DNA of 64,000 nucleotides from Patescibacteria group bacterium (GCA_041650515.1 JBAZLA010000001.1:82710-146709), one strand, 5' to 3'. Positions 259 through 61,110 are shown, counted from the first letter of the stretch. Notes: a model not told the origin generated them from the letters alone. Translations and numbers: made by a program.

Positions 259-573
259 ATGGACGAATTGTTCAAGGGGTTGGTGGAAACACTCAGGAGA
301 GTACTCCGAGCTGACACCACCTATCCATCACCGTCAATAATGGAAGTACTGCGTGATATCGTCTCGGTTATGATCAAAATAGCCGAGAGCCAAGAGTTGT
401 CGGAGGAGGCCAGGTTGGAAACATGCGGCTACCTTCTCCAGGTTTCCTCTGTCTTGCCAGCGCATTTTTTCGCGACGGCGACGGAACCGAAGTTTGGTTC
501 CGTTGAGTTAGATCTCGCTGCTTCGCTCATTGAATTGAGCAGAGCAGTCGCCCACATAAGTCTATCTCGCTAA
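259..573 (+). CDS. Small hypothetical protein (104 aa), moderately GC-rich
   Basis: ORF preceded by AAAGGAGGGTACC-ATG Shine-Dalgarno sequence and followed by an intrinsic terminator. No recognisable motif. Confidence 0.5.
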   Translation: MDELFKGLVETLRRVLRADTTYPSPSIMEVLRDIVSVMIKIAESQELSEEARLETCGYLLQVSSVLPAHFFATATEPKFGSVELDLAASLIELSRAVAHISLSR

Positions 574-574
574 C

Positions 575-610
575 CGACCCGGCGAGTTTAAACAATCGGG
601 TCTTTTTTTA
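575..610 (+). terminator. Rho-independent terminator
   Basis: Hairpin gacccggcgag...cgggtc followed by a T7 run. Confidence 0.6.
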
Positions 611-880
611 TTGCCTAAACCGCTAACCTTGATCAAACTAAAAATCTATGCTATCGTACGGATAGTTTAATTATTAACGATTTCCCACGGGTAGCAGATC
701 TGGGAAAATACCGACTAGCAGTTTCTGGCCAAATTAGACTAAATTTAGCTTAATTTCTCTCTTAATGACAACTATCTCTCCCAAGCTAAAACTACTTTAA
801 AATAGCAAGTAGTAGTCATTGCGGCATATTTTATTTTCGCCAAATAAACTACCTCTCTCTGGGAAGTCCGGAGAAATAAT

Positions 881-3630: not shown

Positions 3631-3693
3631 TTTACAAATAAAAAAAGGCGGGCTAAAGATCTAGCGCCGCCGAGCACAACCCGAGAGGGTGCG

Positions 3694-4116
3694 CTATTGT
3701 GATTGTTCATCACGAAACCATTGGGTTATTAGATCTTCCCCAACGATTTCGCTGAGATCCTGGAACTGCGCGCCAACTTCCTCCAAGGAGAGTAACCCCT
3801 CCTTATAATTGGCAATAATCTGACCCACAATCACCGGGGCCACAATCTCCAGGTCTTCCTGGGACAGACGACCCATTACCCGAGCCGCCAGCTCGGGTTC
3901 CTCTTCATACATGGTAGCCAAGAGGTTTTCGAGAACATTCACCCGATGGTCGAGCTGGCCGTTTGCTTGCTGAAGACAGCGAGCGCCGGATTTTTCGACG
4001 TAAACCCAGAACGACAGCCCGAGCACTAACAGGATTAGCGCGATTGCCTTAACCGCCCAGACGACATCTGAATTTTCTTCTAAAACATCTTCGATCCAAG
4101 CATATCTACTAAACAT
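3694..4116 (-). CDS. Hypothetical membrane protein, moderately GC-rich
   Basis: ORF with TAGGAGGGGTT-ATG start (MFSRYAW...). The ORF track extends it to 4161. One transmembrane segment. A terminator hairpin lies downstream at about 3640-3675. Confidence 0.45.
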   Translation of the reverse strand: MFSRYAWIEDVLEENSDVVWAVKAIALILLVLGLSFWVYVEKSGARCLQQANGQLDHRVNVLENLLATMYEEEPELAARVMGRLSQEDLEIVAPVIVGQIIANYKEGLLSLEEVGAQFQDLSEIVGEDLITQWFRDEQSQ

Positions 4117-4384
4117 AACCCCTCCTAATTTCCAATCGTTTCCGGACCAAACGAAACACAATATTAAATGATATCACATTATTATGTTAATGTCAATAGT
4201 TACCCCAAGAAAAACACCTCTGTTGAGCAAAAAAATTAATTAGGGCGATCCAATATCATCGCATACCATTCGACTTACTTCGCTTATTTGAAGTAAACTC
4301 TGTCAAATGGTAAAAATAATTCAAAAAAGCGACCCGCCACAAAGGCGGACCGCTTACTAATTGATTATTACCAATTACTATCTA

Positions 4385-4966: not shown

Positions 4967-5054
4967 AATTTTTAATTCTTATTTTCTAATTCTTAATTAA
5001 TATAGTAGCACCGTTTGAGTTCATAATCAAGAAAAAAGCAGGGCTGGATACCTG

Positions 5055-5294
5055 CTACCTTAGGGTGTCAACCGTCAGCTTGGACGGCACATCGGCGGTG
5101 TATACCGCCCGCTGTCTGCCAGCCACGACATCCTGGAGAACAATCATCTCGGTGCTGCCGGTGCCAAAGACAGCGCCGATCTCTCGCCCCAGGCGCAACA
5201 CCTCGGTGGGATTCTGGTAATCCGCCTGAGTCTCTAGACAGACCACCGCTTTGACGTCTTTGCCCCAATGTCGATTGGGCTCAACCTGTTTCAT
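5055..5294 (-). CDS. Small hypothetical protein (80 aa) in a GC-rich islet
   Basis: GCAGGAGGGCTGT-ATG start (MKQVEPN...). Local GC is clearly above the flanks. No recognisable motif. Confidence 0.4.
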   Translation of the reverse strand: MKQVEPNRHWGKDVKAVVCLETQADYQNPTEVLRLGREIGAVFGTGSTEMIVLQDVVAGRQRAVYTADVPSKLTVDTLR

Positions 5295-5429
5295 ACAGCC
5301 CTCCTGCGGCCAAAAATAAGTTGGTGCCAAATTGTAACACAAATATAAAAAATTTCAAATTATTTATCTCAACCTGAAAAAAATTTAGAAAAAAGTTTAA
5401 TTTTATTTAATCTACCATCTTTTATGATG

Positions 5430-5665: not shown

Positions 5666-5713
5666 TTAAAATAAAAAAACCAGTTGTTAGGGACAACCGG
5701 AAAACCCCAAATA

Positions 5714-6031
5714 CTATTTTTGGTCAGACCATTCGATGTCGCCTTCGGCTTCAACCCACCTTACACAGTTTTTCTGTAGAACCGAGGGATGATGCCGATC
5801 GTTCTCCAAACGGGGTTGCTCGATTCGGCCCTCGGCGAGCAGTCGGCGGACAATCTTTTCCGCCAGATCGGGGTTGGCACCCCAACACTGATCTCGATAC
5901 CGCTGAATCACCCTATCCCAATCAACGGGATTGGGGCAACGGGTGCCAGCAATGATTTTGTCTAAGGCATCGAGGGCTACTTTCCCCTCAATAATGTCTT
6001 GAATACACCACGAAAGACTTAGTCCAATCAT
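5714..6031 (-). CDS. Hypothetical protein (105 aa), moderately GC-rich
   Basis: TGGAGGGTTGTC-ATG ribosome-binding site. No recognisable motif. Confidence 0.45.
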   Translation of the reverse strand: MIGLSLSWCIQDIIEGKVALDALDKIIAGTRCPNPVDWDRVIQRYRDQCWGANPDLAEKIVRRLLAEGRIEQPRLENDRHHPSVLQKNCVRWVEAEGDIEWSDQK

Positions 6032-6203
6032 GACAACCCTCCATATATTCCAATTACATACAACGCGATAATACGATCTTACTTTGTATCATGCCATGAC
6101 TAAAAAGTCAAATATACTCACCAAAAAAATTAACAAAAAAATAGCCATTCTAGGCTACTCATTCCGCGTCGGCTGCTGGGTACTAGGTACTAAGTACTAG
6201 GCA

Positions 6204-22355: not shown

Positions 22356-24899
22356 CTACTCCTCACAGGTTAAGACGATAGCATCAAGCCAAAAGTCAGC
22401 GGCTTGATCACCAAACTCAAATGTCAGTTTAGCCGATGCATCATCGCCTAGAACCGTGAAGTCGTGACTATAGGTTTGCCAGCCACTACTCAGATTGACG
22501 CTCTGCCAGAGACCAAGGCCTTGATAGGGGCTATGGTCTTGCTCCAGCGAGATAATCAACGGTAAGCTGTTGCTGGCCGCGGCAGCATAGCTGAGCTGAC
22601 ACTGCCAACCGACCTGGACCGACAAACTCTGTTTGAATTGACCTTGCCAAGCGTACTGATTAGCAGTGGCGTTTGATAGCCACCAGCTACAGTCGCCACT
22701 GAAAGCGCTGGAGCAATCCTGGCTGATTTCCACTGTATTGTTGTGGTCTTCTACTTGCCACGGATATAGGCCGCCGATCTCGGCACCGCCATTACCAAGC
22801 AGATTATTTGGGTCGTCCAGCGGCTCATCAATCACCGACAGATGTAAGCCGTCGAAATAATAAGTGCCGGTCTGACCACTGAGATAGAAGACCAACTTGG
22901 CGTTGGTGTCAGTCTGCGCTGGTGAAAAACGGTAACGATAGCGATGCCACTCTGGCATCAGGGCAAAAGTGTAGCCGCTATCCAGATTCTGCCCAGGTGA
23001 ATGGTTTTGGATCACCGTTACCTTGGGAGTCTGATAAGCGCTACCTTTAGCCCAGAAGATCAGTTCATAGACCTGACCAGCCTGGAGTGATTGCGTCTGG
23101 TAAAGCTGAACGCCGCTGATCGCGCCGCTCTTGCTAACCAGAACTTGGTAAGCCCGCCGACCATCAACGGCACCAATAGTGGTCACCTGACCAGTACCCG
23201 TACCCTGAGTACCGCCGGCGCTGCGGAAAGCCCAACTAGTTGCCCCACTCTCAAAGCTGGGATTACGCAACAAGTTGATAGTTGGACTAGGCACGATGCC
23301 GACTATCTCAAAGTAGAGGTTATCGAAGCTCAAATCGCCGACAGCGTCACCGTAGAAAAAACGGATGGCCGCCGTTGAATCACTGCGACGAGTGGTGAAG
23401 TACCCACTAAACTGTTGCCACTGCCGGTTGATTTGGAAAGTCTGTTCTGGCGCTAGAACGTCACCCAGGCTAATGATGTAACCGTAGTGATCGTAGGTCC
23501 GACGCGGGGTCAAGGCGATGGTAACGTTGCGCTCGGCCACACCGCTAGTCGTCCGAGCTTCGGCCTCCCAGTAGTAGATAGCATTGGCTTCGATCTGTAG
23601 CGGCCAATCCTCATGATTGGTAAGCTGGGCGTGATAACGCGAAACCTGGGTACCGAGTTTGGTGGTCCCACTACCAATAGCGCAGTTATCGGGTCGCAGA
23701 TCATCATTGCAACTAGCGGCCAAACGTGGACCGCCAGTATCACAATAGTAAGTCTGCCAACCCCAAGCGCCGCAGATATCGCTCCGGCCATTAAGTAACG
23801 CACCAGCGTAGAAATTCTCCCAGCCCCAATCGCGAGCTTGGATCCGATCAACGCAGGTGAGAGCAACCGGCGGAACTTCTTCCTGTTCCTCCATTTCGGC
23901 GCGAAAATCGCCAAAAAAGACTTCAATCGGACTAGCATAGCGCAGTTTGCCCAACTCGAAGTATTGGCAAGTACCACCATCAGGGCAAGCAACTTCATTG
24001 CTGATCGGTGGACCCAGATCAATTGGGCCGAAGAGACTAGGCGAGGCGGAATAGCAGGTATAAGGACTCGCTCCCTTATAGACGCACCAGAAACCTTCCT
24101 TAATTAGAAAGGCTTTTTTTTCTTCCGGGCTCCAAACTAAGGCTGTCTGGCCGTCAGTGCCGTAGTATAAGCCCTGCAGATCCTGGAGCCAAACCCCATA
24201 CCAATCGTGGACGTATTCTCCGCCCCCATTGTTAGATGGTAAGCCAAGTTTGGCATAACCACCAGCATCGAGGTAAACATCCAGAAAAGCTGGGGAGATT
24301 TCCTCATCCCAACCGTCTGGGAAGAAACCGGGGCCGTGGGGGGTATTCCCGGAGACGTAACGATGCGCACCATCGTCTTCGGAACAATCGCAGCCAGTAG
24401 GTACGCCGCCGTTTGGCACATCCACAAACGACGAGGGAATCGAATTGCCAGATACACTACCTTGCACCTGGTAGTGAATATGGGCCCCGGTTGATCGTCC
24501 CGTAGTGCCGCACGTCCCAAGGATGTATCCTTGCGGCACTTCTTGATCTATCACCACAAGCACATCTTCCAGATGAGCTACGCGGCTATAGAACCCATCG
24601 CTATGCTTCACTACTACGGTGTTTCCCCAGCCACTATTGTAGCTACCGTCGTTCGAAACGGCTACTACAGTCCCAGCTACCGAAGTCAGTACCGGGCGAC
24701 CGGGATCATTATTACTGTTAAAATCCCAACCATACTTCAAGACGTCTGAAGTATGGCCACCCTGATTGTTGCCTTGGGTTACCCACCAGGTTTCACTGAC
24801 TGAGAAAGGCAGTTTGAACGCGGGGGCCGCACTACCCTGGCTGACGCTTAGGAGTAATGCAACAGCCACCAACCACAAACTGATGCTGAACCGTTTCAT
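22356..24899 (-). CDS. Secreted M23-family peptidase with large C-terminal (carbohydrate-binding-like) extension
   Basis: Signal peptide, then an M23/LytM core (HSDGFYSRVAHL...GTTGRSTGAHIHYQV), then about 650 aa of Trp/Gly/Cys-rich extracellular sequence. GC is modestly above the core. Confidence 0.65.
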   Translation of the reverse strand: MKRFSISLWLVAVALLLSVSQGSAAPAFKLPFSVSETWWVTQGNNQGGHTSDVLKYGWDFNSNNDPGRPVLTSVAGTVVAVSNDGSYNSGWGNTVVVKHSDGFYSRVAHLEDVLVVIDQEVPQGYILGTCGTTGRSTGAHIHYQVQGSVSGNSIPSSFVDVPNGGVPTGCDCSEDDGAHRYVSGNTPHGPGFFPDGWDEEISPAFLDVYLDAGGYAKLGLPSNNGGGEYVHDWYGVWLQDLQGLYYGTDGQTALVWSPEEKKAFLIKEGFWCVYKGASPYTCYSASPSLFGPIDLGPPISNEVACPDGGTCQYFELGKLRYASPIEVFFGDFRAEMEEQEEVPPVALTCVDRIQARDWGWENFYAGALLNGRSDICGAWGWQTYYCDTGGPRLAASCNDDLRPDNCAIGSGTTKLGTQVSRYHAQLTNHEDWPLQIEANAIYYWEAEARTTSGVAERNVTIALTPRRTYDHYGYIISLGDVLAPEQTFQINRQWQQFSGYFTTRRSDSTAAIRFFYGDAVGDLSFDNLYFEIVGIVPSPTINLLRNPSFESGATSWAFRSAGGTQGTGTGQVTTIGAVDGRRAYQVLVSKSGAISGVQLYQTQSLQAGQVYELIFWAKGSAYQTPKVTVIQNHSPGQNLDSGYTFALMPEWHRYRYRFSPAQTDTNAKLVFYLSGQTGTYYFDGLHLSVIDEPLDDPNNLLGNGGAEIGGLYPWQVEDHNNTVEISQDCSSAFSGDCSWWLSNATANQYAWQGQFKQSLSVQVGWQCQLSYAAAASNSLPLIISLEQDHSPYQGLGLWQSVNLSSGWQTYSHDFTVLGDDASAKLTFEFGDQAADFWLDAIVLTCEE

Positions 24900-29047: not shown

Positions 29048-29200
29048 GTCATTGCGAGGAGCAAAGCGACGAAGCAATCTCCTGAATAATCCACCAGATT
29101 GCTTCGTCGCTCCGCCAGTTGGCGGAACTCGCTTGGGGCTGGCTCCTTATATTGTCATCCTGACCCCCTCGGCAAAGTTTATCCTGAACGCAGCGAAAGT
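29048..29200. repeat. Family-B composite repeat
   Basis: Left arm gtcattgcgaggagc with hairpin gacgaagcaatctcctgaataatccaccagattgcttcgtc, then a second module ttgtcatcctga... Confidence 0.7.
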
Positions 29201-29251
29201 ATAAAAAAAGTGGTCACGTCGACCACTGGTCCTCCAAATCCTCCTGCATTC

Positions 29252-30397
29252 CTAACCGATGTACGACAGCGTATGGCAGCTAGAACAAACCACGATTCGC
29301 CGCCAATCGACGTCGCCGCTCCGGAATGGCTGCAGCGTTTTCTGATCACACTGCTGACAGCGACCATCATAACTGAAGCCGTTAATGTCGTCCCGCGTCG
29401 CCGCAGACATTGGATCAGAAGCAAAAGTCACGTGGCAGTCAGCACACTCCGCCACTCGCCGAGGTCCTTCTTGGGTGATAATCACCCGGGTACGGGGGAA
29501 GTCACAGCCGCCCCAACACCGACACTTAATCGGAAACTCCCGGACACTCTGCAAGCCGTTAGTGGGTGGCTCGTCAGCTTCCTCGGGCTGATCAGTGTCC
29601 GGCTCCTCCGAATCTTCATCGGCCCAGGGACGAAACTTGTGACTACGCCAACAGGTGATCACCGGTCGACGACCTTGTTTGGTCGCCTCCTCACTGATGC
29701 CACCCTGACCGACCCGTTCACCACATTGAGGGCAACGATGGTTATGGGTCTGGCCAGAATCAGACATCGGCAAGGCCAACCAATCAATCAGCTCAACCGG
29801 GCGATCACCTTGCTTGCGGTAGATTTTGCCGCAACTACCGCAGACGACGACGTCACGCTCGCCCTGCTGAGTCTCAATCCGCCGGACCTTGTTGGCCCGA
29901 CTGTCCCAACTGTTGGGACCGTTACTGCAGTAAGGACACTCGTGCCGTGGTTCCCGGCTGGCGGCTGTGGCCAGACTATTCCAATCCGGCCGAGCGTCGG
30001 CTCTGCGGTAATCACGTTTACAACGACCACAGCGCCGAACCGGTTGGTAACCGGTTAACGTCATGGCATTGGCTTCGTGATTACCTTTCCAGTTGCCGCA
30101 GTAGGGGCAACTGTCACAGAACGGCCCATCGGTCTTGCCCAGCGGCAAGTCCTCAAGCCGTATACCTGCCGGCTTGTTAACCGGTGCCGAAGCGGCGAAC
30201 CGGCTAACCCGTGCCGACTCGCTGCGACGATCACCGTGAGCATGAGCCGGCCAAGCCTGGCCCGGGTAGTTTTTCCGCCAGAACGCCTGCATCTGACGCT
30301 TGCGTCCTGACTTCTGCGACCGCTGAACTTTCCAGCCACGCCGCTTATTACACCCCTTCTCGCTGTACCGGTTACACCGGTGTTTTTTGGATTTCAA
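29252..30397 (-). CDS. Cysteine-rich zinc-ribbon-repeat protein with basic N-terminus (GC-rich island)
   Basis: At least nine CxxC-type pairs at regular spacing (CDSCPYC, CGRC, CPYC, CGSCG, CPQCG, CADCH, CQQCD, CSSCH). Start is TTG, preceded by GAGAGGAGGAATC. GC is about 60% against a flank of about 42%. The antisense 319-aa ORF is compositionally implausible. Confidence 0.55.
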   Translation of the reverse strand: MKSKKHRCNRYSEKGCNKRRGWKVQRSQKSGRKRQMQAFWRKNYPGQAWPAHAHGDRRSESARVSRFAASAPVNKPAGIRLEDLPLGKTDGPFCDSCPYCGNWKGNHEANAMTLTGYQPVRRCGRCKRDYRRADARPDWNSLATAASREPRHECPYCSNGPNSWDSRANKVRRIETQQGERDVVVCGSCGKIYRKQGDRPVELIDWLALPMSDSGQTHNHRCPQCGERVGQGGISEEATKQGRRPVITCWRSHKFRPWADEDSEEPDTDQPEEADEPPTNGLQSVREFPIKCRCWGGCDFPRTRVIITQEGPRRVAECADCHVTFASDPMSAATRDDINGFSYDGRCQQCDQKTLQPFRSGDVDWRRIVVCSSCHTLSYIG

Positions 30398-30467
30398 GAT
30401 TCCTCCTCTCCGGCCTGGCCGGTGAAATTAGACAATAGGTTTACTCTTTCTTAACACAATCAAATCC

Positions 30468-34769: not shown

Positions 34770-34815
34770 GCCCTAAAATAAAAAAAGGAGGCTGATGGCG
34801 CAAGTGCCGGCCTCC
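34770..34815 (-). terminator. Rho-independent terminator (minus strand)
   Basis: ggaggccggcacttgcgccatcagcctcc followed by a T7 run on the minus strand. Confidence 0.65.
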
Positions 34816-34854
34816 GTAAATGACCATTTGGGGCTGGTCAAAGCCCTGCCGTGT

Positions 34855-35298
34855 TCAGTCGGCGCGGACGTCTTCCCGGCCCGGGAAAAACTTGAGCTCC
34901 GAGGGCACAGAAAGTGTCGGCGTCACGATGGTGGTCATAAACCCAAACTGCCGGCTCTTGGCGATGTGCCGGGCGATGAAGTACATCATCGCCGAATTGA
35001 ACTGGCTGGCCAGTTCCGCCAGCTTGTCTTCCGGCACGGGTACTTCCTCGGTGTGGAGTTCGACCCAGACCATCGCCTGTTCGCCGTGGTCGCCGAGACT
35101 GACGATCGGCGGATCGACACAGATGTCTTCCGCCTTGCACGGCATTTCCACAACATCGTTGCCCTGATCGTCATCAACCATGGCGAAGATGTCGTTGGTC
35201 TCGATCAGCGTCCTGGCCAGGCCCCCCAGCTCATGGGGGCGGTGTACCAGACCGGTATCACGCGCCGCAATGCTGGACATACGAATTACGATACGCAT
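34855..35298 (-). CDS. Acidic hypothetical protein (147 aa) in a GC-rich island
   Basis: AAGGAGGAAACC-ATG. Plausible composition. The overlapping plus-strand 215-aa ORF is R/H-rich antisense noise. Confidence 0.5.
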   Translation of the reverse strand: MRIVIRMSSIAARDTGLVHRPHELGGLARTLIETNDIFAMVDDDQGNDVVEMPCKAEDICVDPPIVSLGDHGEQAMVWVELHTEEVPVPEDKLAELASQFNSAMMYFIARHIAKSRQFGFMTTIVTPTLSVPSELKFFPGREDVRAD

Positions 35299-35640
35299 TG
35301 GTTTCCTCCTTGGTTATCACATTTCGACCACCTGAAATCAAACTCTCAAGCCATTGCTGGCTCAATTATCCGACTCCGCCTAAAAAACCCGGAAAAAAGT
35401 AGCCCTATTTACTCTTTTCCCGCTCTTTTAGGTACTAATTGAGAGCGTTGAATAATTATGAAACGCTCTCATCCTGAGCAAAGCGAAGGATCTCTTACGG
35501 TTTGACTACCACGATAATCACTTAGCTCGGTATGAGATAATTAAATCATTCAATAGTTAAAATTAGGAACTTTAGACCTTAACATATTTTCCATTATCTG
35601 TCAACAATTCTCTTTGCCCAAGGAAAATATTACCATCTTC

Positions 35641-35810: not shown

Positions 35811-36023
35811 CTACCGATGTTTTGGTACCGGTCCGTCAGCAAACATTAGCCAAAAGAAAGGTAATAAACAAATTGCCCCTCCCATTTTGGCCATCTCGCG
35901 ACCGCCATTATATGCCCAGCGGCTAAGGCGCCAGAGCGTCAGCCAATAAAGCACATAAAGCGTCGGCGGCGGTAAGATAATCAACCAGTACACCCAGTAA
36001 TTGGTAAAGACATCTGTCTTCAT
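35811..36023 (-). CDS. Small hydrophobic protein (about 70 aa), GC-rich
   Basis: GGGGGGAGCT-ATG start. Two predicted transmembrane segments. Confidence 0.3.
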   Translation of the reverse strand: MKTDVFTNYWVYWLIILPPPTLYVLYWLTLWRLSRWAYNGGREMAKMGGAICLLPFFWLMFADGPVPKHR

Positions 36024-36135
36024 AGCTCCCCCCAAGTTAGAAGACCCTACTTATATTGTAGCCCCTTTAAAAAGAAAAAGAAGAGACAGTTTCTAATCTT
36101 GTCGATAATATTCAAAAAAAACAAAATACTAGATA

Positions 36136-42652: not shown

Positions 42653-42764
42653 ATCTTATATTATTTTAGTAATAGCTATTTTAGCAGACTTTTAAAAAAA
42701 ATCAACTCAGTTGACAGAATAAGTGATTAATCTACAATAACAACAATCCAAGGAGGTTTTAGTT

Positions 42765-43100
42765 ATGAATGCCGGTATTGAAAATCCGGAAATATATCTC
42801 GCGTTGTTGCGAGCTACGGCTAATGCGCAAATTCTATACAATCGGGCGGTCTTCTGCCTGATGCACCACGCCTGTAGCCACAGCCACCAACCAAAATTAG
42901 AAACTCCCATGATGGCTTTTGCCGATCTCTGGCAAACTGCCAACACTACGCTCCGGCGGCAAAAAGCTCGAGAGTTTCTACAAGCCGCCACCCGGCTCGA
43001 ACTCGGCTGGGTCTGGCCGGATCAACCGACCGAGGAAGAACCAACCGAGAGGCAACTGGCCGATGCTTTCGCCAATCTGCTTAAGCATCTCAATCATTAG
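42765..43100 (+). CDS. Hypothetical protein (111 aa), GC-rich island
   Basis: AAGGAGGTTTTAGTT-ATG, with a terminator gacccatccgggtc followed by a T8 run downstream. Confidence 0.5.
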   Translation: MNAGIENPEIYLALLRATANAQILYNRAVFCLMHHACSHSHQPKLETPMMAFADLWQTANTTLRRQKAREFLQAATRLELGWVWPDQPTEEEPTERQLADAFANLLKHLNH

Positions 43101-43293
43101 ACCCATCCGGGTCTTTTTTTATACCCCTACGAATTTTTATCATGTCATTGCGAGCGTAGCCCCCGACCCGTGTGTCGGGGGCGGAGCGAGTCGAAGGATA
43201 GTTTATAAAAAAGACCCGGAAGAAAGAGCCCCAATGGGTTTTCTCCGGGTGGCGAATCTTTACGATCCGCTAGTTTTCAGTTGTCCGTGTGCT

Positions 43294-43728
43294 TCAGCAG
43301 TTGAGCACGGTGACGATCCCCACGGAGGAGTTGAAGCCCAGGCTGGACAGGTAGCTTTCGTCCACGGCGGCGACTTCCTCACGGATTTCCTTCGAATTGA
43401 CGTCGTTCTCGTTGACGGCAATATCGTTGGAAACGCACTCCGTTCCTTGATCCATCGGCGCGACGTCGTTGTTCGCATCCTTCGACTGTGCGGCGGTGAT
43501 CACGTTGACCAGGGAAGCGGGCGGCGACACATCAACGGTCGCCGAGAGATTGGGCGCCGCGTAGTTCGCAGCCAACCCGAAGATAATCGCCTGATGGTTC
43601 GCAACGACGGCCGGAGTCTCATCGGTGGCCTCGTTCGCGACCTGAACCGGAGCGGCCTGCGCGACGGTCAGCCCGACCATCAGCACCGCCAAACAACACA
43701 ACGCAATGCACAAAAACAGTTTTCTCAT
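43294..43728 (-). CDS. Secreted hypothetical protein (signal peptide), GC-rich island
   Basis: AAAGGAGAAGAACCG-ATG and an N-terminal signal peptide (MRKLFLCIALCCLAVLMVGLTVAQA). Confidence 0.5.
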   Translation of the reverse strand: MRKLFLCIALCCLAVLMVGLTVAQAAPVQVANEATDETPAVVANHQAIIFGLAANYAAPNLSATVDVSPPASLVNVITAAQSKDANNDVAPMDQGTECVSNDIAVNENDVNSKEIREEVAAVDESYLSSLGFNSSVGIVTVLNC

Positions 43729-44168
43729 CGGTTCTTCTCCTTTTCGAAGAATTTTTGCCCCACCCTGGCTGATTGAAACCCTAGGGTTCCGAATCTGATA
43801 CCAAAGCGGTGCGCCTCCTGATTACCCTAGCAATCCCCTACCGATCGATCCAAATTAACCAAACTAGCTGTCATGGGGGTTGACTACTTCCCACTGACTA
43901 GCTCCCAAGGGTTAGTTGGGTCTCATGCTTGTTGAGGGATAACAGATCTAGTGCTAGTCTGGCTAGCAGTTTGATCAATCGTGATCGAATCGGTTTTGAA
44001 GGTTGCTTTTGGGTTATCATAATAATACTAATTTTATTTTTATTTAGCAAATAAAAAATTGCTTCGGCCGCCGGTAACCAATTGACAGAATGATTTATAA
44101 ATAATAAAGTGAGTTATTCGGTCTAATTTTGGAATTTGGAATTTTCAACTTTCTTGGAGGGCAGTAAA

Positions 44169-44645
44169 ATGACGACCTTTTCATCTTTAGTTGACTCTTT
44201 GGTTGGCTCGGTGGTGGGCACCAAGTCGTTTGGTATGGCCGTGGCGGATCTGTTGGCCTACCTGGCCAAAATGCAGCCGCTGCAGGATCCCAAACAACAG
44301 CGGTTGCTGCAGGCCGCCGAAGCATCCTTCCGCGACGCACCAGCAATGAAACCCTGGCTCGCCTGCGTCGCAACTTGGCAAATTCTCGAGGATATTTTCA
44401 CCGAATTGGCTGACACCCAATCAGCCTTTGAGGATTCGCACCCTGGCTCCGAAGAAGAGACCAGGGTAGATCAAGTCACCAGTGATCTATCAGATGTCCT
44501 GAACGATCTACACGATCTAAAGGGGATCGACGATCTCCAAGACGACCAACTAATGGCCGAGGAGGTTCGCCGCTTGACTCACAAATGTTTCCTGGCGATC
44601 AACGCCTGGCTGGAAATCATGGGTTGGTTACCTCAGGAGGGATAA
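44169..44645 (+). CDS. Hypothetical acidic protein (paralog pair member 1)
   Basis: TGGAGGGCAGTAAA-ATG. Followed by terminator gagggtaaccatcccctc-T7, which is nearly identical to the one after 44751..45197. Confidence 0.5.
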   Translation: MTTFSSLVDSLVGSVVGTKSFGMAVADLLAYLAKMQPLQDPKQQRLLQAAEASFRDAPAMKPWLACVATWQILEDIFTELADTQSAFEDSHPGSEEETRVDQVTSDLSDVLNDLHDLKGIDDLQDDQLMAEEVRRLTHKCFLAINAWLEIMGWLPQEG

Positions 44646-44750
44646 CCAACCGACGTCACAACCCCGAGGGTAACCATCCCCTCTTTTTTTATTGACAAAT
44701 CACTAAAAATAATATTAGATAAGCATAACTTTAACTGCGAGGTCACGAGA

Positions 44751-45197
44751 ATGGAAGAAGGGTTTAGCCGGTTACTCAATACCCTGCGGCAATCCGCCGC
44801 CGCACTCGAGCGCAGGGACGCGCTTATGGAGATCATGGGAATATTCCAACGCTTGGAAATATTCCAATCCTGCCAGAACTTATTGGCAGGACTCATAGCG
44901 TGTTTTGGTCTCTGTCCCCGACTACCGGGACTTGGCCAGCGGCTGTTTCTCCGCCACCTCTTCGTGGCACTCAGCCAGCACCTCGGCACCGAGGTCCAAA
45001 AGCGGGAAGCGGCAACCCCGCCGACCTGGGAAGAACCAGCGGGCTACCCCGATATGGTGGTCGCCCTCACCAAGGCCATGCAGGTCCTGGAAAAGGATGC
45101 CAACCTGGAAACCATCCACGGAGCAGCCGCAGACGGCTTTGCCGCTCTGTTCCAATGGCTCGGTTGGCTCGGAGCCTTTTCCGGCACAACAGACTGA
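44751..45197 (+). CDS. Hypothetical protein (paralog pair member 2)
   Basis: Followed by gagggtacccactccctc-T7 terminator, a duplicate of the upstream one. Weak Shine-Dalgarno sequence. Confidence 0.4.
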   Translation: MEEGFSRLLNTLRQSAAALERRDALMEIMGIFQRLEIFQSCQNLLAGLIACFGLCPRLPGLGQRLFLRHLFVALSQHLGTEVQKREAATPPTWEEPAGYPDMVVALTKAMQVLEKDANLETIHGAAADGFAALFQWLGWLGAFSGTTD

Positions 45198-45350
45198 CTA
45201 GCACCACGTTGCTGGCCAGCGAGGGTACCCACTCCCTCTTTTTTTATTGCTAAACGACGCAGGTTATATAACCTAAATTTATTTTACGACACAAAATCTA
45301 ATTTAAATATAAACAAATAATCAAATAACCAGCAGAAATTATCAACCAAT

Positions 45351-45400: not shown

Positions 45401-45459
45401 ATTTGACATCCACCAACCGATGTCCTAAAGTTAAAAATCAACCCAGGAGGATTTTCAAA

Positions 45460-45852
45460 ATGTTTAAACGGGAAGTTTTTCTCAAAGAAAAGTTGGCTGG
45501 CTGTCAGCCAACTGATCTGAGGATCTATTACTCTGGCGGGATTGTCAGCGCCCACATGAGCAAAGACAACCGCCGCTTCAGCCACGGGGCAGTCACCAGC
45601 CTCATGCCGGAATATGAGATTGAGGTCGGGGAGAAAGAAACCGTGGTTGTCCTGAAAGGGACTCTCAAGGTTCGCTTTCTTCACAAGAACGCTCCGGCGG
45701 ATGAGCCACGCTTTGACGAACGCTGGACCAAGGTCCATACCGGCGAAACCGTGGTCTTCGAAGCCGGAACTGGCGTCATTCTCGCCTGCGATCAGGAAGA
45801 GCCAGTCGAATTCTGGTGCGAATACGGCGACGCGCCAACCAACTCGGAGTAA
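45460..45852 (+). CDS. Small beta-barrel (cupin-like?) protein, paralog 1
   Basis: CAGGAGGATTTTCAAA-ATG. Shares GTL.IRF ... K.H.G..V...AG..V motifs with the 45968 gene. Followed by a terminator. Confidence 0.5.
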   Translation: MFKREVFLKEKLAGCQPTDLRIYYSGGIVSAHMSKDNRRFSHGAVTSLMPEYEIEVGEKETVVVLKGTLKVRFLHKNAPADEPRFDERWTKVHTGETVVFEAGTGVILACDQEEPVEFWCEYGDAPTNSE

Positions 45853-45967
45853 ACCCTTTTCTGGTAAACTCCACCTACCCCCCCCCACCTCGTGGGGTTT
45901 TTTATTTCTATTGACATTAAAGCTATTAAAAATTAAAGTTAAATTAACAAATAGGAGGTTGCAAAAA

Positions 45968-46354
45968 ATGGGAAGTTTCTTGGATCCAGAAATAAACACC
46001 AAGCCGGAAATTAAGAACAACGGTGGACTAATTAAAGTCTACTACTTCAATCAGTCTCAGTGTTATTTAGGGATCGTGACAGGGGGAGCTGAATATCAGT
46101 ACACCCCGGATAAAGATGAACCCATCGAAGTCACGGTCGGAACTCTTCAAATTCGCTTCCCACTAAAATACCCTAAACCACGTCAGTACCCGTGGTGCCA
46201 AAGGCTCCGAAAATACCACGTCGGCCAGAGAGTTACACTTCAAGCTGGCGTAACTGTCTGCCTATCAACGCTGGAACTTTCAGGAGCCGCTTTCAATGCC
46301 CATATTGGGCCCTATCCAACCATCGTCAAAGAGGATGGGCCTCAAAAGGGCTAA
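45968..46354 (+). CDS. Small beta-barrel (cupin-like?) protein, paralog 2
   Basis: TAGGAGGTTGCAAAAA-ATG. Paralog of 45460..45852. Followed by terminator atcccccatcgggga-T7. Confidence 0.5.
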   Translation: MGSFLDPEINTKPEIKNNGGLIKVYYFNQSQCYLGIVTGGAEYQYTPDKDEPIEVTVGTLQIRFPLKYPKPRQYPWCQRLRKYHVGQRVTLQAGVTVCLSTLELSGAAFNAHIGPYPTIVKEDGPQKG

Positions 46355-46485
46355 ATATAGGCAAATATCCCCCATCGGGGATTTTTTTATTCCCTCCCCC
46401 TGCTAAGGGGGAGGTGGCCGCAGGCCGGAGGGGGTCTTTGGGGTGGGAGGAGTATCAAAAAACACCCCATTTCTAGAGTGATCTT

Positions 46486-46562
46486 TGGTGGGCGTAAGTG
46501 GGCTCGAACCACTGACCTCTGCAATGTGAATGCAGCGCTCTAACCAGCTGAGCTATACGCCC
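46486..46562 (-). tRNA. tRNA-Val (anticodon CAC), CCA encoded
   Basis: Acceptor gggcgta/tacgccc. Anticodon loop uUCACau. T-arm agtggTTCGAGCccact. Confidence 0.85.
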
Positions 46563-46823
46563 TTATTTATCGTCTTTTTTAATTGCTTTGCTTAAATAAA
46601 CTGTAACTAAAACCACTACTACAGTTATTACTACAGCATAAATAAACTTCGCTACTAGCGAACCACCATTTTCTAAAGGAAAAATATAGTCAATCAGACC
46701 CTTAATTGCTTCGTTCCAGGCTAAACCCGCAACTAAGCCAAAAGCCGCAATAACATAGCTCAAGGTCCGCTGGCGGATCTCCTGCCTCAAATTTGGATCT
46801 TTTGGTGCTTGTTCTTCAGCCAT
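46563..46823 (-). CDS. Small membrane protein (about 86 aa)
   Basis: Start MAEEQAPK... The upstream part of the tracked ORF overlaps tRNA-Ala. C-terminal transmembrane segment. Confidence 0.35.
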   Translation of the reverse strand: MAEEQAPKDPNLRQEIRQRTLSYVIAAFGLVAGLAWNEAIKGLIDYIFPLENGGSLVAKFIYAVVITVVVVLVTVYLSKAIKKDDK

Positions 46824-46845
46824 AAATTTTTGTTCAGCGCTTTTT

Positions 46846-46919
46846 TGGACTCGAGGGGGATCGAACCCCTGATCTCCGCAATGCGAATGCGGCGCTCTAC
46901 CAACTGAGCTACGAGCCCT
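46846..46919 (-). tRNA. tRNA-Ala (anticodon CGC)
   Basis: G3:U70. Anticodon loop uUCGCau. T-arm aggggTTCGATCcccct. Confidence 0.85.
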
Positions 46920-47023
46920 CAAAAAGAGCTAAACAGATTAATAATTAAATACTCGGGCATTGTCTCCGCCTTACCACTAGAAATGACCACAAATCTGGCC
47001 TTAAGCTTATCCAACTCGTCTAA

Positions 47024-47095
47024 CGTCCCCGATAGGAATTGAACCTATATCTAGGGCTTAGGAGTCCCTTGTTCTATCCGTTGAACTACGGGGAC
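47024..47095 (-). tRNA. tRNA-Arg (anticodon CCU)
   Basis: Acceptor gtccccg/cggggac. Anticodon loop cUCCUaa with one A:G mismatch at the stem base. T-arm ataggTTCAATTcctat. Confidence 0.75.
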
Positions 47096-47107
47096 ATCAG
47101 GCGAATT

Positions 47108-47151
47108 GGGCTTAGGAGTCCCTTGTTCTATCCGTTGAACTATTGGGGCAT
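47108..47151 (-). pseudogene. tRNA-Arg(CCU) 5'-half duplicate (fragment)
   Basis: Copies acceptor-5', D-arm and anticodon arm of the adjacent gene. Flanked by inverted ggcgaat/attcgcc. Confidence 0.7.
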
Positions 47152-47215
47152 ATTCGCCTCTATGAGGAATGAAATCCTTCGCTCCGCTCAGGACGGAGCC
47201 TACTTATTTTCTTAC

Positions 47216-47264
47216 CGCCCCCATGAGGAATCCCACCCTCACGGGTGGTGGCCCGTTAGGGCCA
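47216..47264 (-). repeat. tRNA-Arg(CCG) 3'-end duplicate (cgcccccatgaggaatc) + double mini-hairpin module
   Basis: 17-nt copy of the tRNA 3' end, followed by ccaccc-tcac-gggtgg and tggccc-gtta-gggcca hairpins. Confidence 0.7.
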
Positions 47265-47278
47265 GAACCTTAAATATC

Positions 47279-47350
47279 CGCCCCCATGAGGAATCGAACC
47301 TCAATTTTGGGATCCGGAATCCCACGTCCTATCCATTAAACGATGAGGGC
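47279..47350 (-). tRNA. tRNA-Arg (anticodon CCG)
   Basis: Acceptor gccctca/tgggggc (one G:U pair). Anticodon loop uUCCGga with G37. T-arm tgaggTTCGATTcctca. Confidence 0.8.
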
Positions 47351-54385: not shown

Positions 54386-54507
54386 CGCTAAAAAACTATA
54401 CCCACCTGCCAAAACTGCCAACCAGCAGTTTTTTGATTTGACATTATTTCTAAAAAGGCTAAGCTTAAACATACTCTCAATAGTTCTTTACCAAGTAGGA
54501 GGGGTTT

Positions 54508-54873
54508 ATGAAACCCAAACGCGGCAGCCAGAAGATCGAGGTGGATTTTCTGTACGTGGTGATGCCACGGGCACATCGAGTGGTCTTCGTTGCCACTCAA
54601 GACGTGCCCCACGGAGTCAACCTCGAAAAAGTGGTCCAAAAATATGTTTTAAATGAACTCAAAAAAGCGGGGGAAGGACATCGTTTCTTCTGGTATCGTC
54701 TCGACAACCACATGAGGCCGCCGAGGAACCGCCCTCGTCCAGGCGATTTCCATGTACTCCAGGTCTATTACGGATCGACGGCAAATCGGGACGCAACCAA
54801 GGATATGTCTCAACCAGATTCCAAATGGCTGCGACAGGCTGTCCATGCCCTGCTGCGGCAACTGGCGGCCTAG
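54508..54873 (+). CDS. Hypothetical protein (121 aa), GC-rich islet
   Basis: AGGAGGGGTTT-ATG. Has a downstream hairpin and T-run. Confidence 0.5.
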   Translation: MKPKRGSQKIEVDFLYVVMPRAHRVVFVATQDVPHGVNLEKVVQKYVLNELKKAGEGHRFFWYRLDNHMRPPRNRPRPGDFHVLQVYYGSTANRDATKDMSQPDSKWLRQAVHALLRQLAA

Positions 54874-54969
54874 CCGCTATCAGACACGCTGTGTCCAACC
54901 CAGTCATTACGACTGGTTTTTTATTAAAAAAAGTCGCGAAGCGACACCTTTATTTTTAATTCTTAATTT

Positions 54970-58600: not shown

Positions 58601-58793
58601 ACTGGGGTTTGGGGCGCCCGCCTAGACTCGACGTCTAGTCGAGGCTGGAATACGGCGCGCAGCCGAGCTCCGACCTTTTTTGATTACGCCAAGGAGCGAG
58701 GCGGGTAAAACGAGCTGGGGATGAACAACGAATCGCGCCTGATGAGTCCCAAAGCTTTTTTGTGTTACTTTTTTAGTTATAAAAAAGTAACAA
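58601..58793 (+). repeat. Family-A structured repeat, copy 2
   Basis: ggggtttggggcg...agtcccaaagc-T6 closing stem. Has ttttttgattacgcc and gcgggtaaaacgag blocks, and the terminal palindrome gttactttttta-gtta-taaaaaagtaac. Confidence 0.6.
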
Positions 58794-58902
58794 CCACTAT
58801 TTTTCCAAAAAAAAGAAGCAGGTGGGCTTCTGTCTAGTGTTGTATCCTCCTTGGAAAACACTAGCTAGAAGCTTCCTGCTTTTGGGGGTATATTGCAACC
58901 CC

Positions 58903-59718
58903 TTAGGCGTCATCCTCCTCCCACGGATACCGGTTGTCCGGTTCGGACTCGGGAACGTGTGGCCCCCGCCGTGGCGGTTCCTCGCATTGCTGCTCGGTCC
59001 GCCCGCGACGCCGGCGGCGGCGGATGATCAGCCAAACGACCAGCAACAGCACCGGGATGCCAATCCGCAGCGCCCAGGTCTTGATCGCCAGATTCCGCTG
59101 GTCCGATTTGGCCTTGGCGTGGCTGGCATTGATCATTTCCATCGCCGCTTGGATGTCAGCCGGCGTGGCTTCGACTGCGGCGTCCTCCTTGAGCCGACGG
59201 TTTTCGGCCAGCGCCGTTTCCAGCGCTGCAGCCTGATCAGCCTGCGCCTGAGCGAGCTGGCCAGCCGGGCTGTCGGGCAACGGATCCGCTTGGTCTTCCA
59301 AGCCCCGCGGATACCAGACCGACGCCGAAGCGCCGGAACTGGCACCCATCAGCTTGTAGCGACCAGAAGCGGACACGTTCCAGGTGGATTCACCGGGAGG
59401 CAATTCGGTCTTTTCTCCAGATCCCTGAAGGGCAAAGACCTTGCCCGAATGGACCGACACCGTCAGCTTGGGTGCCCGCAACGGGTCCATCCAGACGGTC
59501 CGCACGACTTCGTTTTTGGGCAAGCTGTACGGCCCGTTCCAGACGGGGTTTGGGGTTTGTGTTGCTGTCTGCTTCGCCGCGGAGTTGGTCTTGAGCGACT
59601 CGAGCTGCTTTTTGGCCAGCTCGATCAGCTTATCCAGACCAATCTTGGCTTCACCGGTCAGACCGCCGGCCGTCCGTTCGAGAAGCTCAATCTCCTCTTC
59701 GGACAGCGGCTGGCCCGC
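58903..59718 (-). CDS. Hypothetical protein with C-terminal transmembrane segment and poly-Arg tract; continuous in frame with the upstream gene across a TAG
   Basis: Open frame from the codon after TAG(59719-59721) to 58903. The post-stop sequence is coiled-coil-like (EEEIELLERTAGGLTGEAKIGLDKLIELAKKQLESL). The ORF track starts at a TTG (59523). GC-rich. Confidence 0.4.
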   Translation of the reverse strand, partial: AGQPLSEEEIELLERTAGGLTGEAKIGLDKLIELAKKQLESLKTNSAAKQTATQTPNPVWNGPYSLPKNEVVRTVWMDPLRAPKLTVSVHSGKVFALQGSGEKTELPPGESTWNVSASGRYKLMGASSGASASVWYPRGLEDQADPLPDSPAGQLAQAQADQAAALETALAENRRLKEDAAVEATPADIQAAMEMINASHAKAKSDQRNLAIKTWALRIGIPVLLLVVWLIIRRRRRRGRTEQQCEEPPRRGPHVPESEPDNRYPWEEDDA

Positions 59719-60414
59719 CTAGATCTTGGTGCGGATTGCCTCGAGCCGGACAATCTTCAGCGCCTGCTCGTAGTCGGCGTACTCCGCCGCGATCTCGGTT
59801 GCCACCGTCTGGGCCGGATTAACTTGATCAGTTGCCCACCAGAACGGGGTGTTGTGGCCACAGACCCGGACCCAAATCCCCGAAGGAAAAAGGCCGAGAA
59901 TCAGGATCACCAGGACCAACCGGACGCCGGACGCCGCGAGGCGTTTGGGCCACATGCCCGTGGGCAGGCCCCACGCACGGCCGATTGCCCAAAGGCAAAG
60001 TAGCACCAGAAACAGACCGACGATAAAGGTGACGCTGAAGTGGAGCGGGGTGAGGGTCAGCCCGATGATGATAATCAACGGGTAGACCAGGATGGTCGCG
60101 AGAGTCAGGGTCACCGCCCCCCAACCGCGCTTGGCGATTCGCGCCGCCAGATCGGCCAGGTAGAGGGAGATGCCTTTGACCTTGTCCTCGGTAAGACCGA
60201 GGAGTGCGCCCAGCTCCTTGACGACCTTGGTCACCTTTTCCTCGAGAAACAGGGCCAAAACACCGCCGACCAACCAGGCGAGTACTTTCTGCTTGCGGGT
60301 CATCGGCTTGTCGTCTTCGATTCCGAGCCAGGCGAGGAGCATGGTGAAAAACTGAACGTACGGATCTTTCGTTTCGCCGAGGGGATCGGCTGTGGGCTTG
60401 ATGTTCTCGGACAT
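59719..60414 (-). CDS. Polytopic membrane protein (231 aa), GC-rich operon
   Basis: GAAGGAGTACTGCC-ATG. About 5 transmembrane segments. Ends at an in-frame TAG. Confidence 0.5.
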   Translation of the reverse strand: MSENIKPTADPLGETKDPYVQFFTMLLAWLGIEDDKPMTRKQKVLAWLVGGVLALFLEEKVTKVVKELGALLGLTEDKVKGISLYLADLAARIAKRGWGAVTLTLATILVYPLIIIIGLTLTPLHFSVTFIVGLFLVLLCLWAIGRAWGLPTGMWPKRLAASGVRLVLVILILGLFPSGIWVRVCGHNTPFWWATDQVNPAQTVATEIAAEYADYEQALKIVRLEAIRTKI

Positions 60415-60456
60415 GGCAGTACTCCTTCGTTCGTTGCTATCGAGTTGATTCGTTGG

Positions 60457-61110
60457 TTACTTCTTCTTGGGCATTAGCGCGGACATCATGGACGACTGCA
60501 AATGATTGGACATGGCCGTCGCGAAACCCCGCAAGGGAGACCGCTTGATCCAGCCGTGGTCCAAACAATACTGCGTTCGTTGCCAATCGTCCTGCCGCTC
60601 CTTGCCCCAACTTCCCATGAGCAGATACAAATACGGCAAGTCGTCGCGACTCTTGGTCGCAGCGACTACCTGCCGGAAATGATCCTGCGCCCAGGTTGGG
60701 AGATGGGTATACCAGTTGTTGAAAGCCTCATCGGCCGCTTTCAGAGCCGCTTCATCAAGTTTAAAGACTTTGACGGTCTCTTTTTTGGTTCTCAGCTGAG
60801 CACCTTCACGCGCCGGCGGAAGCTCTTTGTCCACGATAACGCTTCCCTCCATGAGGGTATGCGCTTTCTTGGCTTCAACCTCCATCGAGGCGGCTTCGTC
60901 TCCGAAACCGAGTCCGCCAACAGTACCAACCGCTTGCGCTTTTCCGGCGCCAGCGATTGTCTGTTTTATGCCGAATAGGCGATCAAGTACGAAGGCGGCA
61001 ATAGCCGCTACCGTGAAATCGCCAGCATCCGGTACAAAATGACGCAGAAAGCTCTGGACACCAGACGCAGGTTCACTTGCCGCCGAAGCGGTTTTCTTGT
61101 CCTCGGACAT
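60457..61110 (-). CDS. Hypothetical protein (217 aa), first gene of GC-rich operon
   Basis: ACGGAGGATACGAAA-ATG. No recognisable motif. Confidence 0.5.
   Translation of the reverse strand: MSEDKKTASAASEPASGVQSFLRHFVPDAGDFTVAAIAAFVLDRLFGIKQTIAGAGKAQAVGTVGGLGFGDEAASMEVEAKKAHTLMEGSVIVDKELPPAREGAQLRTKKETVKVFKLDEAALKAADEAFNNWYTHLPTWAQDHFRQVVAATKSRDDLPYLYLLMGSWGKERQDDWQRTQYCLDHGWIKRSPLRGFATAMSNHLQSSMMSALMPKKK

Follow-up and report, generated by a model that had tools for sequence, protein, structure and literature searches.

We analyzed a 64-kb stretch (64,000 nucleotides, hereafter the window) of the chromosome of a Patescibacteria group bacterium, a member of the candidate phyla radiation (CPR) (GCA_041650515.1, JBAZLA010000001.1:82710–146709), with a GC content of 44.0%. 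Its large open reading frames (ORFs) encode RNase Y, RpoB, RpoC, FtsK, RecA, ArgRS, PolA, and a Mur ligase. Exact-protein look-ups located the window on a 472,517-bp ENA contig (ERZ27247363 k141_1064255), and the NCBI locus tags for genes of this organism take the form WC480_*. The nearest RNase Y proteins among GTDB species representatives are 63–66% identical and come from Patescibacteria metagenome-assembled genomes, such as those of Falkowbacteria and Uhrbacteria; a search by PolA for a close relative in a metagenome collection returned none, the best identity being 50%. The window is core chromosome from a poorly sampled CPR lineage. Wedged among its housekeeping genes, with rny, clpP, rpoBC, argS, and polA as neighbors, are at least 17 single-gene units that each consist of a promoter, a strong Shine-Dalgarno (SD) sequence, a GC-rich orphan ORF, and a terminator. 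An earlier description of this DNA made from the sequence alone (hereafter the sequence-only reading) had pointed to them as compact, self-contained cassettes, correctly so. The units, numbered by the GC-rich islet in which they lie, are as follows (aa, amino acids; GC3, GC content at third codon positions; TM, transmembrane).

isl1, 157..610, plus strand: promoter TTGACA-N17-TACGGT at 157–185; AGGAGG at 248–253; ORF 259–573, 104 aa, acidic, helical-looking, GC 0.50, GC3 0.57, singleton cluster; hairpin + T7 terminator at ~576–610.
isl2, 3640..4196, minus strand: promoter 4196–4168 (TTGACA-17-TATCAT with TG); AGGAGG at 4126–4121; ORF 4116–3694, 140 aa, one N-terminal TM segment; double hairpin terminator.
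isl3, 5037..5358, minus strand: promoter 5358–5331 (TTGAAA-16-TACAAT); AGGAGG at 5305–5300; ORF 5294–5055, 79 aa, GC3 0.70, in the DHH-clpP gap; terminator 5056–5037.
isl4, 5680..6111, minus strand: promoter 6111–6083 (TTGACT-17-TACAAA); GGAGG; ORF 6031–5714, 105 aa, in the DHH-clpP gap; terminator 5700–5680.
isl5, 29200..30410, minus strand: GC 0.58; GAGGAGG; TTG start at 30397; ORF 30397–29252, 381 aa, with 23 Cys in about five CxxC...CxxC zinc-ribbon pairs; terminator GTGGTC..GACCAC + T7.
isl6m, 34790..35310, minus strand: AAGGAGG at 35310–35305; ORF 35298–34855, 147 aa, GC3 0.76; terminator GGAGGC..GCCTCC + T7 at ~34830–34790.
isl6b, 35811..36060, minus strand: ATG at 36023, 70 aa, small membrane protein; TACAAT -10 box upstream; GC-rich hairpin repeats downstream at 35640–35709.
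isl7a, 42711..43125, plus strand: promoter 42711–42738 (TTGACA-16-TACAAT); AGGAGG at 42751–42756; ORF 42765–43100, 111 aa; terminator 43099–43121.
isl7b, 43205..43745, minus strand: AAGGAG; ORF 43728–43294, 144 aa, signal-peptide-like N-terminus, GC3 0.78; terminator 43232–43211.
isl7c, 44082..44695, plus strand: promoter 44082–44110; GGAGG; ORF 44169–44645, 158 aa, acidic; terminator 44666–44690.
isl7d, 44692..45250, plus strand: promoter 44692–44721; GAGG; ORF 44751–45197, 148 aa; terminator 45221–45245.
isl7e, 45403..45905, plus strand: promoter 45403–45431; AGGAGG at 45445–45450; ORF 45460–45852, 130 aa; terminator 45883–45903.
isl7f, 45911..46390, plus strand: promoter 45911–45939; AGGAGG at 45953–45958; ORF 45968–46354, 128 aa, GC3 0.47; terminator 46367–46389.
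isl8, 54438..54935, plus strand: promoter 54438–54465 (TTGACA-16-TAAGCT); AGGAGG at 54497–54502; ORF 54508–54873, 121 aa, basic; hairpin + T terminator.
Islet 9 operon, 58860..61326, minus strand: promoter 61326–61298 (TTGACT-17-TATCAT); leader of ~190 nt; bidirectional terminator; GC 0.55–0.65.
isl9a, 61110–60457, minus strand: GGAGG upstream; 217 aa.
isl9b, 60414–59719, minus strand: AGGAG upstream; 231 aa, three TM-like hydrophobic stretches.
isl9c, ending at 58903 after an in-frame TAG, minus strand: C-terminal TM segment and Arg run.

The strongest result is a split in translation-initiation signals between the islet genes and the core genes. A GGAGG motif lies 3–10 nt ahead of the start codon in 12 of 16 islet genes and in none of 39 core genes (Fisher p=4e-9), and the window's 14 best predicted duplex energies with the anti-SD sequence are all those of islet genes. 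The strong ribosome-binding sites proposed by the sequence-only reading were therefore borne out, and more sharply than had been claimed. To guard against circularity with the earlier selection of islets, we scanned the whole window blindly for ORFs of 60 aa or more whose start codon follows GGAGG after a 3–10 nt spacer; 13 were returned, each of them inside an islet. With permuted control pentamers, such ORFs were two- to sixfold rarer per occurrence, and the matches were mostly internal to long genes. No SD precedes the core genes, rpoB/C, rpsF, rpsT, efp, and recA among them, and the DNA upstream of them is AT-rich. We call them SD-less rather than leaderless because their upstream regions are merely AT-rich and show no sharp positional peak of a -10 box. 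The 16S rRNA gene lies ~3 kb past the end of the window (positions 2521–4174 of the flanking locus L001, ~66937–68590 in window coordinates, minus strand), followed by genes for tRNA-Ile, tRNA-Phe, and tRNA-Pro. Its 3' end, ...GGATCACCTCCTTTCT, is a canonical anti-SD with which the islet-gene SDs can function in this cell; some Parcubacteria have lost the anti-SD (PMC9297842). We found no earlier description of so clean a translation-initiation split that tracks GC content.

The same genes stand apart in base composition. Mean gene GC is 0.555 for islet genes vs 0.417 for the 39 other genes, and the contrast is far larger for GC3 (0.64 vs 0.41, Mann-Whitney p=2e-8); GC1 and GC2 are likewise higher in islet genes, with p < 1e-4 in all comparisons. 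By segment, GC is 0.505 (259–573), 0.50 (3694–4116), 0.58 (5055–5294), 0.52 (5714–6031), 0.58 (29200–30430), 0.52 (34770–36030), 0.53 (54480–54900), and 0.59 (58800–61130); segment 42700–46400 has an overall GC of 0.50, with six ORF-sized peaks (0.47–0.59) separated by AT-rich spacers. The figure of 55–62% GC given previously thus holds for 5055–5294, 29200–30430, and 58800–61130 (58–59%) and is too high for the rest (50–53%), although every segment exceeds the core-gene mean of 0.42. Relative synonymous codon usage correlates at 0.44–0.78 among four islet groups and at 0.68–0.89 among core groups, but at only 0.07–0.35 between islet groups and core genes, and codons CGG, GCG, GTG, AGG, and AAG are enriched in islet genes. 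As a description, "a distinct gene class with divergent codon usage" is right. GC3 of individual islet ORFs ranges from 0.47 to 0.79, as expected from acquisitions differing in age or source. GC2 is the lowest codon position in 17/17 islet ORFs, the usual signature of coding sequence (p=8e-9). We rejected the idea that these are islands of GC-rich structured non-coding RNA, given this periodicity and the lack of any Rfam match in the islets, even at E<=0.1.

The regulatory parts of the units are equally regular. The motif TTGACA-N17-TAnnnT occurs at eight sites in the window vs 0.46 expected, and six of the eight lie upstream of islet genes. A relaxed promoter (TTGAC[A/T], 16–18 nt spacer) precedes 11 of the 15 transcription units examined; it is absent upstream of isl5, isl6b, and isl7b, and the site for isl6m lies 277 nt upstream. 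Leaders are AT-rich and 26–75 nt long in most units, with ~190 nt for the islet 9 operon. A hairpin followed by a T-run comes after nearly all islet ORFs, in keeping with the claim that the cassettes have their own terminators; many core operons do too. Averaged along 14 units, GC is 0.31–0.35 in promoter and leader, rises to 0.53–0.59 from codon 7 on, and drops past the terminator stem. Only the ORF and terminator stem have raised GC; what appears as an "islet" is simply the coding sequence.

The islets are found in the same context in three separate assemblies (the ENA contig of 472 kb, a JGI/NCBI contig of 287 kb, and Logan). Wherever DNA was compared, Logan contigs are identical to the window at every base, and a single 8.8-kb Logan contig covers islets 1–4 together with their core neighbors. 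Each islet has AT-rich, host-type promoter DNA at its edges and core genes on either side within the same contig. Because the three assemblies agree, the islets are not chimeric, which settles a check that had been proposed for them.

Two of the islets required a correction of strand. The gene of islet 6 is on the minus strand (34855–35298), and the plus-strand ENA call at 34795–35442 is its antisense shadow; the islet 7 gene at 43294–43728 is likewise on the minus strand, and the ENA plus-strand call at 43063–43776 is wrong. NCBI annotation agrees on the minus strand for both isl6m and isl7b, as does Logan for isl7b. What seems to be a plus-strand SD and start in islet 6, AAAGGAGGCTG ATG, is the reverse complement of the isl6m terminator stem: at 34795, the reversed terminator imitates AGGAGG-N3-ATG. 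In these two islets, a terminator that looks like an SD when read in reverse led Prodigal-type callers to the wrong strand, and annotators should beware of such wrong-strand calls in GC-rich islets. In addition, isl9b and isl9c form one reading frame broken by a single TAG (59719–59721, minus strand), and coding periodicity (0.62/0.43/0.76) continues through the 228-nt "spacer" between them. The TAG is either a recent nonsense mutation or a site of stop-codon readthrough in a gene of ~503 codons; it suggests decay.

Islet 7 had been said to hold two tandem pairs of paralogs. For the pair at 45460/45968 this stood: isl7e and isl7f are true paralogs (27% identity, E=7e-8), and they are alike in their -35 box, TAAAGTTAAA -10 region, leader, and SD placement. 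For the pair at 44169/44751 it found weak support, in that the terminators of isl7c and isl7d are 90% identical over 30 nt and the proteins share one 21-aa C-terminal match, with no significant protein similarity between the two. A single family of isl1, isl7a, isl7c, and isl7d was considered and dropped, the similarity not being significant.

Evidence of insertion comes from synteny, which covers isl3 and isl4. At two related loci (L009 and L012), rbfA-DHH-clpP-rny-ymdB-HU are tightly packed, with DHH-clpP gaps of 170 and 69 bp. The corresponding gap here measures 1238 bp, with isl4 and isl3 inside it. No homologues of islet proteins were found in 80 RNase Y loci, ~20 of them from Patescibacteria.

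Two further features lie among or beside the islets.

tRNA cluster, 46486..47350, minus strand: Val(CAC), Ala(CGC), Arg(CCT), Arg(CCG); adjoins islet 7.
M23 peptidase + CBM_4_9 gene, 22356..24899, minus strand: secreted protein of 847 aa; GC 0.53, GC3 0.55; leader end GGATACGAAG ATG resembles that of isl9a.

The four tRNAs of the cluster all have C34 and read G-ending codons, and such codons are enriched in islet genes; a functional tie between the two may exist. A 44-nt partial copy of tRNA-Arg(CCT), 93% identical, at 47108–47151 may be an integration scar. Islet 9 adjoins tRNA-Cys. On that side there is a short GIY-YIG endonuclease gene (57998–58258), itself adjoining tRNA-Cys, and on the other a type IV secretion system (T4SS)-pilin gene next to a gene (62354–62911) for a 185-aa protein with similarity to phage L-Ala-D-Glu peptidase (PHROG). 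Together these hint at a remnant mobile element over 58.3–63.3 kb, between tRNA-Cys and tRNA-Gly. The sequence-only reading had placed several islets beside tRNAs or repeats, and we could confirm tRNAs at islets 7 and 9 and repeats at 5, 6, 7a, and 8, yet the repeats occur elsewhere too.

A GC-rich element of ~170–230 nt has three full plus-strand copies (36105–36267, 58568–58794, and 62107–62301) and a partial one (17633–17720). Its full copies lie next to islet 6 and on either side of islet 9 + T4SS-pilin gene, so that islet 9 and the pilin gene are bracketed by two copies of this structured ~200-nt element. Each full copy ends in a hairpin and T-run, with nested stems and four compensatory pairs; it has no match in Rfam and may be a small RNA or a recombination site. 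Palindromic, GC-rich repeats of the GTCATTGCGAG...CGAAGCAATC type, which resemble repetitive extragenic palindromic (REP) or miniature inverted-repeat transposable (MITE) elements, were seen between genes at 29070–29151, 50596–50677, and 54313–54394, and also at 34700–34772, 41701–41764, and 52491–52556; some adjoin islets 5, 6, and 8 and others do not. Arrays of an 8-nt unit (TTGTTTTC/TTGCTTTT) were seen at 30564–30629, 31573–31633, 33273–33314, 57063–57144, and 61397–61529. Several are intergenic, and one lies within polA, where it codes for a Lys/Gln/Glu-rich insert.

The M23-CBM gene had been overlooked as a GC-rich gene (0.53) in the sequence-only reading. The nearest homologues of its product are 36–37% identical over 38% of its length, and a Por secretion tail of Bacteroidota type is present on some of them; this does not point to any one donor. 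Close by, at 25033–27231, is a low-GC island (32–34% GC) of two orphan genes (401 and 263 aa) without an SD, with duplicated 119-nt regions upstream of both orphans (24894–25012 and 26314–26432, 85% identical). Elsewhere, tandem paralogs at 50733–52409 and 52554–54212 (558 and 552 aa) have internal repeats and a C-terminal treble-clef zinc finger.

We found no homologue anywhere of the cassette proteins tested. All 16 islet proteins looked up among ~15 billion proteins clustered at 90% identity fell into clusters with copies from their own organism only, as did the protein of a cassette at L001 1648–1953, just outside the window. A word-indexed search of 5.8 billion sequences with isl9a returned only itself, and an exhaustive search of 1.84 billion representatives with an isl7e/7f profile returned only its own two members at E < 1e-10; a marginal match to a 556-aa protein (E=4.3e-4) was discounted. 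Sequence searches of Pfam, PHROGs, PADLOC, and PDB with cassette proteins gave nothing significant save a weak cupin/PpnP match for isl7e, and we discounted a marginal match of isl2 to phrog_10723 (E=0.0037). Scans of viral contigs found no match for isl5 or isl9b, and isl5 had none in PDB or PHROG; plasmid DNA similar to islet 9 and phage DNA similar to islet 7 were also sought, with no match. The fold predicted for isl7e/7f is a PpnP-like cupin with weak sequence similarity to the PpnP family, the score against Pfam PF06865 (PpnP/DUF1255) being below gathering. A single-sequence AlphaFold2 model of isl9a (pLDDT 44) was too poor for use. The cassette proteins nevertheless look real, given the zinc-ribbon pairs of isl5 and the TM or signal segments in seven products (about half).

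Cassettes of this type are not confined to the window. One further cassette lies on each side of it, at L001 1648–1953 (101 aa, GC3 0.74), a GC-rich, SD-led orphan adjoining the 16S rRNA gene, and at L007 18336–18596. In other Patescibacteria, we found the same type at L022 3162–3800; L035 1053–1271 and 9286–9534; L016 2616–2864; and L036 3859–4524. These have a TTGACA promoter, GGAGG, and a small ORF 0.11–0.18 GC-richer than its locus, with a terminator in L022 and L016, and the proteins looked up form singleton clusters. The L022 cassette, which encodes zinc ribbons (GC 0.45 vs 0.34 for the locus), belongs to a 2.9-kb insertion between rny and ymdB. Pooling the other Patescibacteria loci fetched for synteny, we found a mean GC3 difference (dGC3) of +0.10 for SD-led ORFs vs +0.01 for others (p=0.005). 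Several Patescibacteria lineages have no SD-led ORF at all. In 57 control loci from outside the Patescibacteria, one quarter of ORFs are SD-led and dGC3 is ~0; therefore the method does not create the association between SD and GC3.

The pattern is real and statistically robust, and it is most likely a variant of known phenomena, namely genomic islets, morons, and ORFans. Our preferred reading, in which we place roughly even confidence, is that the islets are accessory, lineage-specific genes, foreign or fast-evolving, that were gained as autonomous units in the manner of morons. Such units would have entered the chromosome singly or in small groups, much as morons build up in phage genomes, and each would have brought a near-consensus sigma-70 promoter (TTGAC[A/T], 16–18 nt, TAnnnT), an AT-rich leader, and a strong SD, then an ORF with GC-rich codon and amino-acid usage and an intrinsic terminator. 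The link between SD and GC may reflect a filter, because resident core genes initiate without an SD from AT-rich upstream regions: an incoming GC-rich gene would be translated, and hence kept, only if it carried its own strong SD and promoter. The source would be an essentially unsampled gene pool with higher GC and use of SDs, most likely other Patescibacteria or their mobile elements rather than a sequenced host. A foreign origin, the filter, and this source are what we infer; the layout of the units, the split in composition and SD, the insertion of isl3 and isl4, the intact anti-SD, the coding periodicity, the lack of homologues, and one protein fold are what the data show. Of what the sequence-only reading proposed, recurrent acquisition is the best-supported interpretation, on account of insertions between genes adjacent in relatives, deviation at all codon positions, and non-core signals, and it stands together with the cassettes and their divergent codon usage. 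A host as high-GC donor is unsupported, as no tested islet protein has a homologue and the viral, plasmid, and phage searches gave no match. Most horizontal transfer in Patescibacteria stays within the phylum, and it accounts for up to 13% of their genomes (PMC12455944). Since the GC of bacterial orphans usually follows that of the genome they are in (PMC11293555), native orphans would not ordinarily show a GC3 excess of 0.23.

The units resemble several known systems and differ from each. Morons of lambdoid phages (Hendrix; Juhala) are single genes with their own promoter and terminator that sit between genes adjacent in relatives; their nucleotide composition is unlike that of their neighbors, and their function is usually accessory or unknown. 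The cassettes share the autonomous layout of promoter, ORF, and terminator, and isl3/isl4 are inserted between genes adjacent in relatives (gap of 1238 vs 69–170 bp). Unlike morons, they lie in a cellular core chromosome (with rny, clpP, and polA as neighbors) and not in a prophage, are GC-richer than the host genome, and differ from their neighbors in mode of translation initiation as well. Like genomic islands, they deviate at all codon positions, are lineage-specific, and in some cases lie beside tRNA genes or a partial tRNA duplicate. Unlike islands, they are mostly single genes of 240–450 bp with no integrase, direct-repeat ends, or identifiable donor, and they are GC-richer than the host, whereas foreign DNA is usually AT-richer. 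No homologues turned up in a plausible donor lineage by protein, viral, plasmid, or phage searches, and the only leads to mobility in the window are the partial tRNA-Arg copy and the ~200-nt element that brackets islet 9 and the pilin gene. Like bacterial ORFans, the cassette genes are short, lack homologues, and often encode membrane or secreted proteins; unlike ORFans, which track genome GC and GC3 at ~1:1 (PMC11293555), they lie 0.14 (GC) and 0.23 (GC3) above it and are the sole SD carriers. As in SD-poor systems of the Bacteroidota type, the core genes are SD-less with AT-rich upstream regions and the 16S 3' tail is canonical, but here a sizeable minority of genes, the GC-rich orphans, bears consensus SDs. 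Integron gene cassettes do not fit: the units have their own promoters, their only common 3' element is a generic hairpin with T-run, and no integrase is in the window.

Several observations weigh against accretion from outside. The window has no integrase, transposase, or common att-like end. As no donor or homologue was found, the case for a foreign origin is drawn from composition, signals, and synteny, and as the comparison genomes are distant (RNase Y 65%, PolA at best 50%), absence in relatives cannot date the insertions. The isl7e/7f pair is merely 27% identical and still stands in tandem with similar control regions, with a GC3 of 0.65 in isl7e; if these genes were duplicated in place, high GC has long been kept, and a maintained native class fits better. 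The uniform layout of promoter, leader, and SD could also reflect a native regulatory class.

Such a maintained native gene class is the main rival, and we judge it possible but somewhat unlikely. The islets would then be a vertically inherited set of fast-evolving small accessory proteins, many of them secreted or membrane-bound and perhaps with a role in host interaction, that are translated by an SD-dependent route and whose coding GC is upheld by selection on codons or mRNA or by biased repair or conversion. This would account for the uniform architecture from promoter to terminator, the codon usage common to the islets, the TM or signal segments in about half of the products, an anti-SD kept though core genes do not use it, and the recurrence of the pattern in several Patescibacteria lineages of differing genomic GC; the diverged isl7e/7f pair is its best argument. 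However, no known mechanism keeps the GC3 of some genes 0.2 above that of the genome, and highly expressed core genes (rpoB, rpsF, rpsT, and efp) have neither high GC3 nor an SD. The lack of any cassette homologue in the 80 RNase Y loci also speaks against vertical inheritance, and the in-frame TAG of isl9b/c suggests dispensability.

Birth de novo, in which GC-rich stretches of an AT-rich genome, being poor in stop codons, yield chance ORFs that later gain promoters and SDs, is improbable. The ORFs are short, GC-rich repeat elements are present in intergenic DNA, and the isl9a and isl7e/7f searches found no homologues anywhere, but isl7e/7f have a classical cupin fold with weak PpnP-family similarity, isl5 has five regular zinc-ribbon pairs, the islets show no DNA similarity to the intergenic repeats or to other parts of the window, and bacterial de novo candidates tend to have lower GC than their genome (PMC11293555). 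An artefact, whether chimeric insertions from a high-GC organism or GC-rich non-coding or repeat DNA with spurious ORFs, is scarcely credible: high-GC DNA does give long ORFs on both strands, as the shadow calls in islets 6 and 7b illustrate, and the second GC peak of islet 6 is partly hairpin repeats, but three assemblies agree base for base, AT-rich host-type promoter DNA bounds each islet with core genes on the same contig, GC2 is lowest in 17/17 ORFs, each ORF is precisely bracketed by SD, start codon, and terminator, and Rfam offers no match.

CPR genomes are tiny and regarded as streamlined. Even so, GC-rich accessory DNA makes up ~16% of this 64-kb core region (~12% orphan cassettes and ~4% the M23-CBM gene, for which distant homologues exist), and all of it has expression signals that set it apart from the core. 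A rather doubtful further idea is that the anti-SD in Patescibacteria with SD-less core genes may mainly serve a floating pool of GC-rich, SD-dependent cassettes. If so, the cassettes would move between genomes, or persist in them, as a distinct phylum-wide gene class, and each genome would have two initiation regimes, one for core and one for accessory genes, with the C34 tRNA cluster perhaps aiding the reading of G-ending codons. If the split holds genome- and phylum-wide, it would provide a simple marker, readable from sequence only, of genes that uncultivated episymbionts have gained recently or translate in a special way, account for the retention of an otherwise unused anti-SD, and supply candidate small proteins, often membrane-bound or secreted, for work on host interaction.

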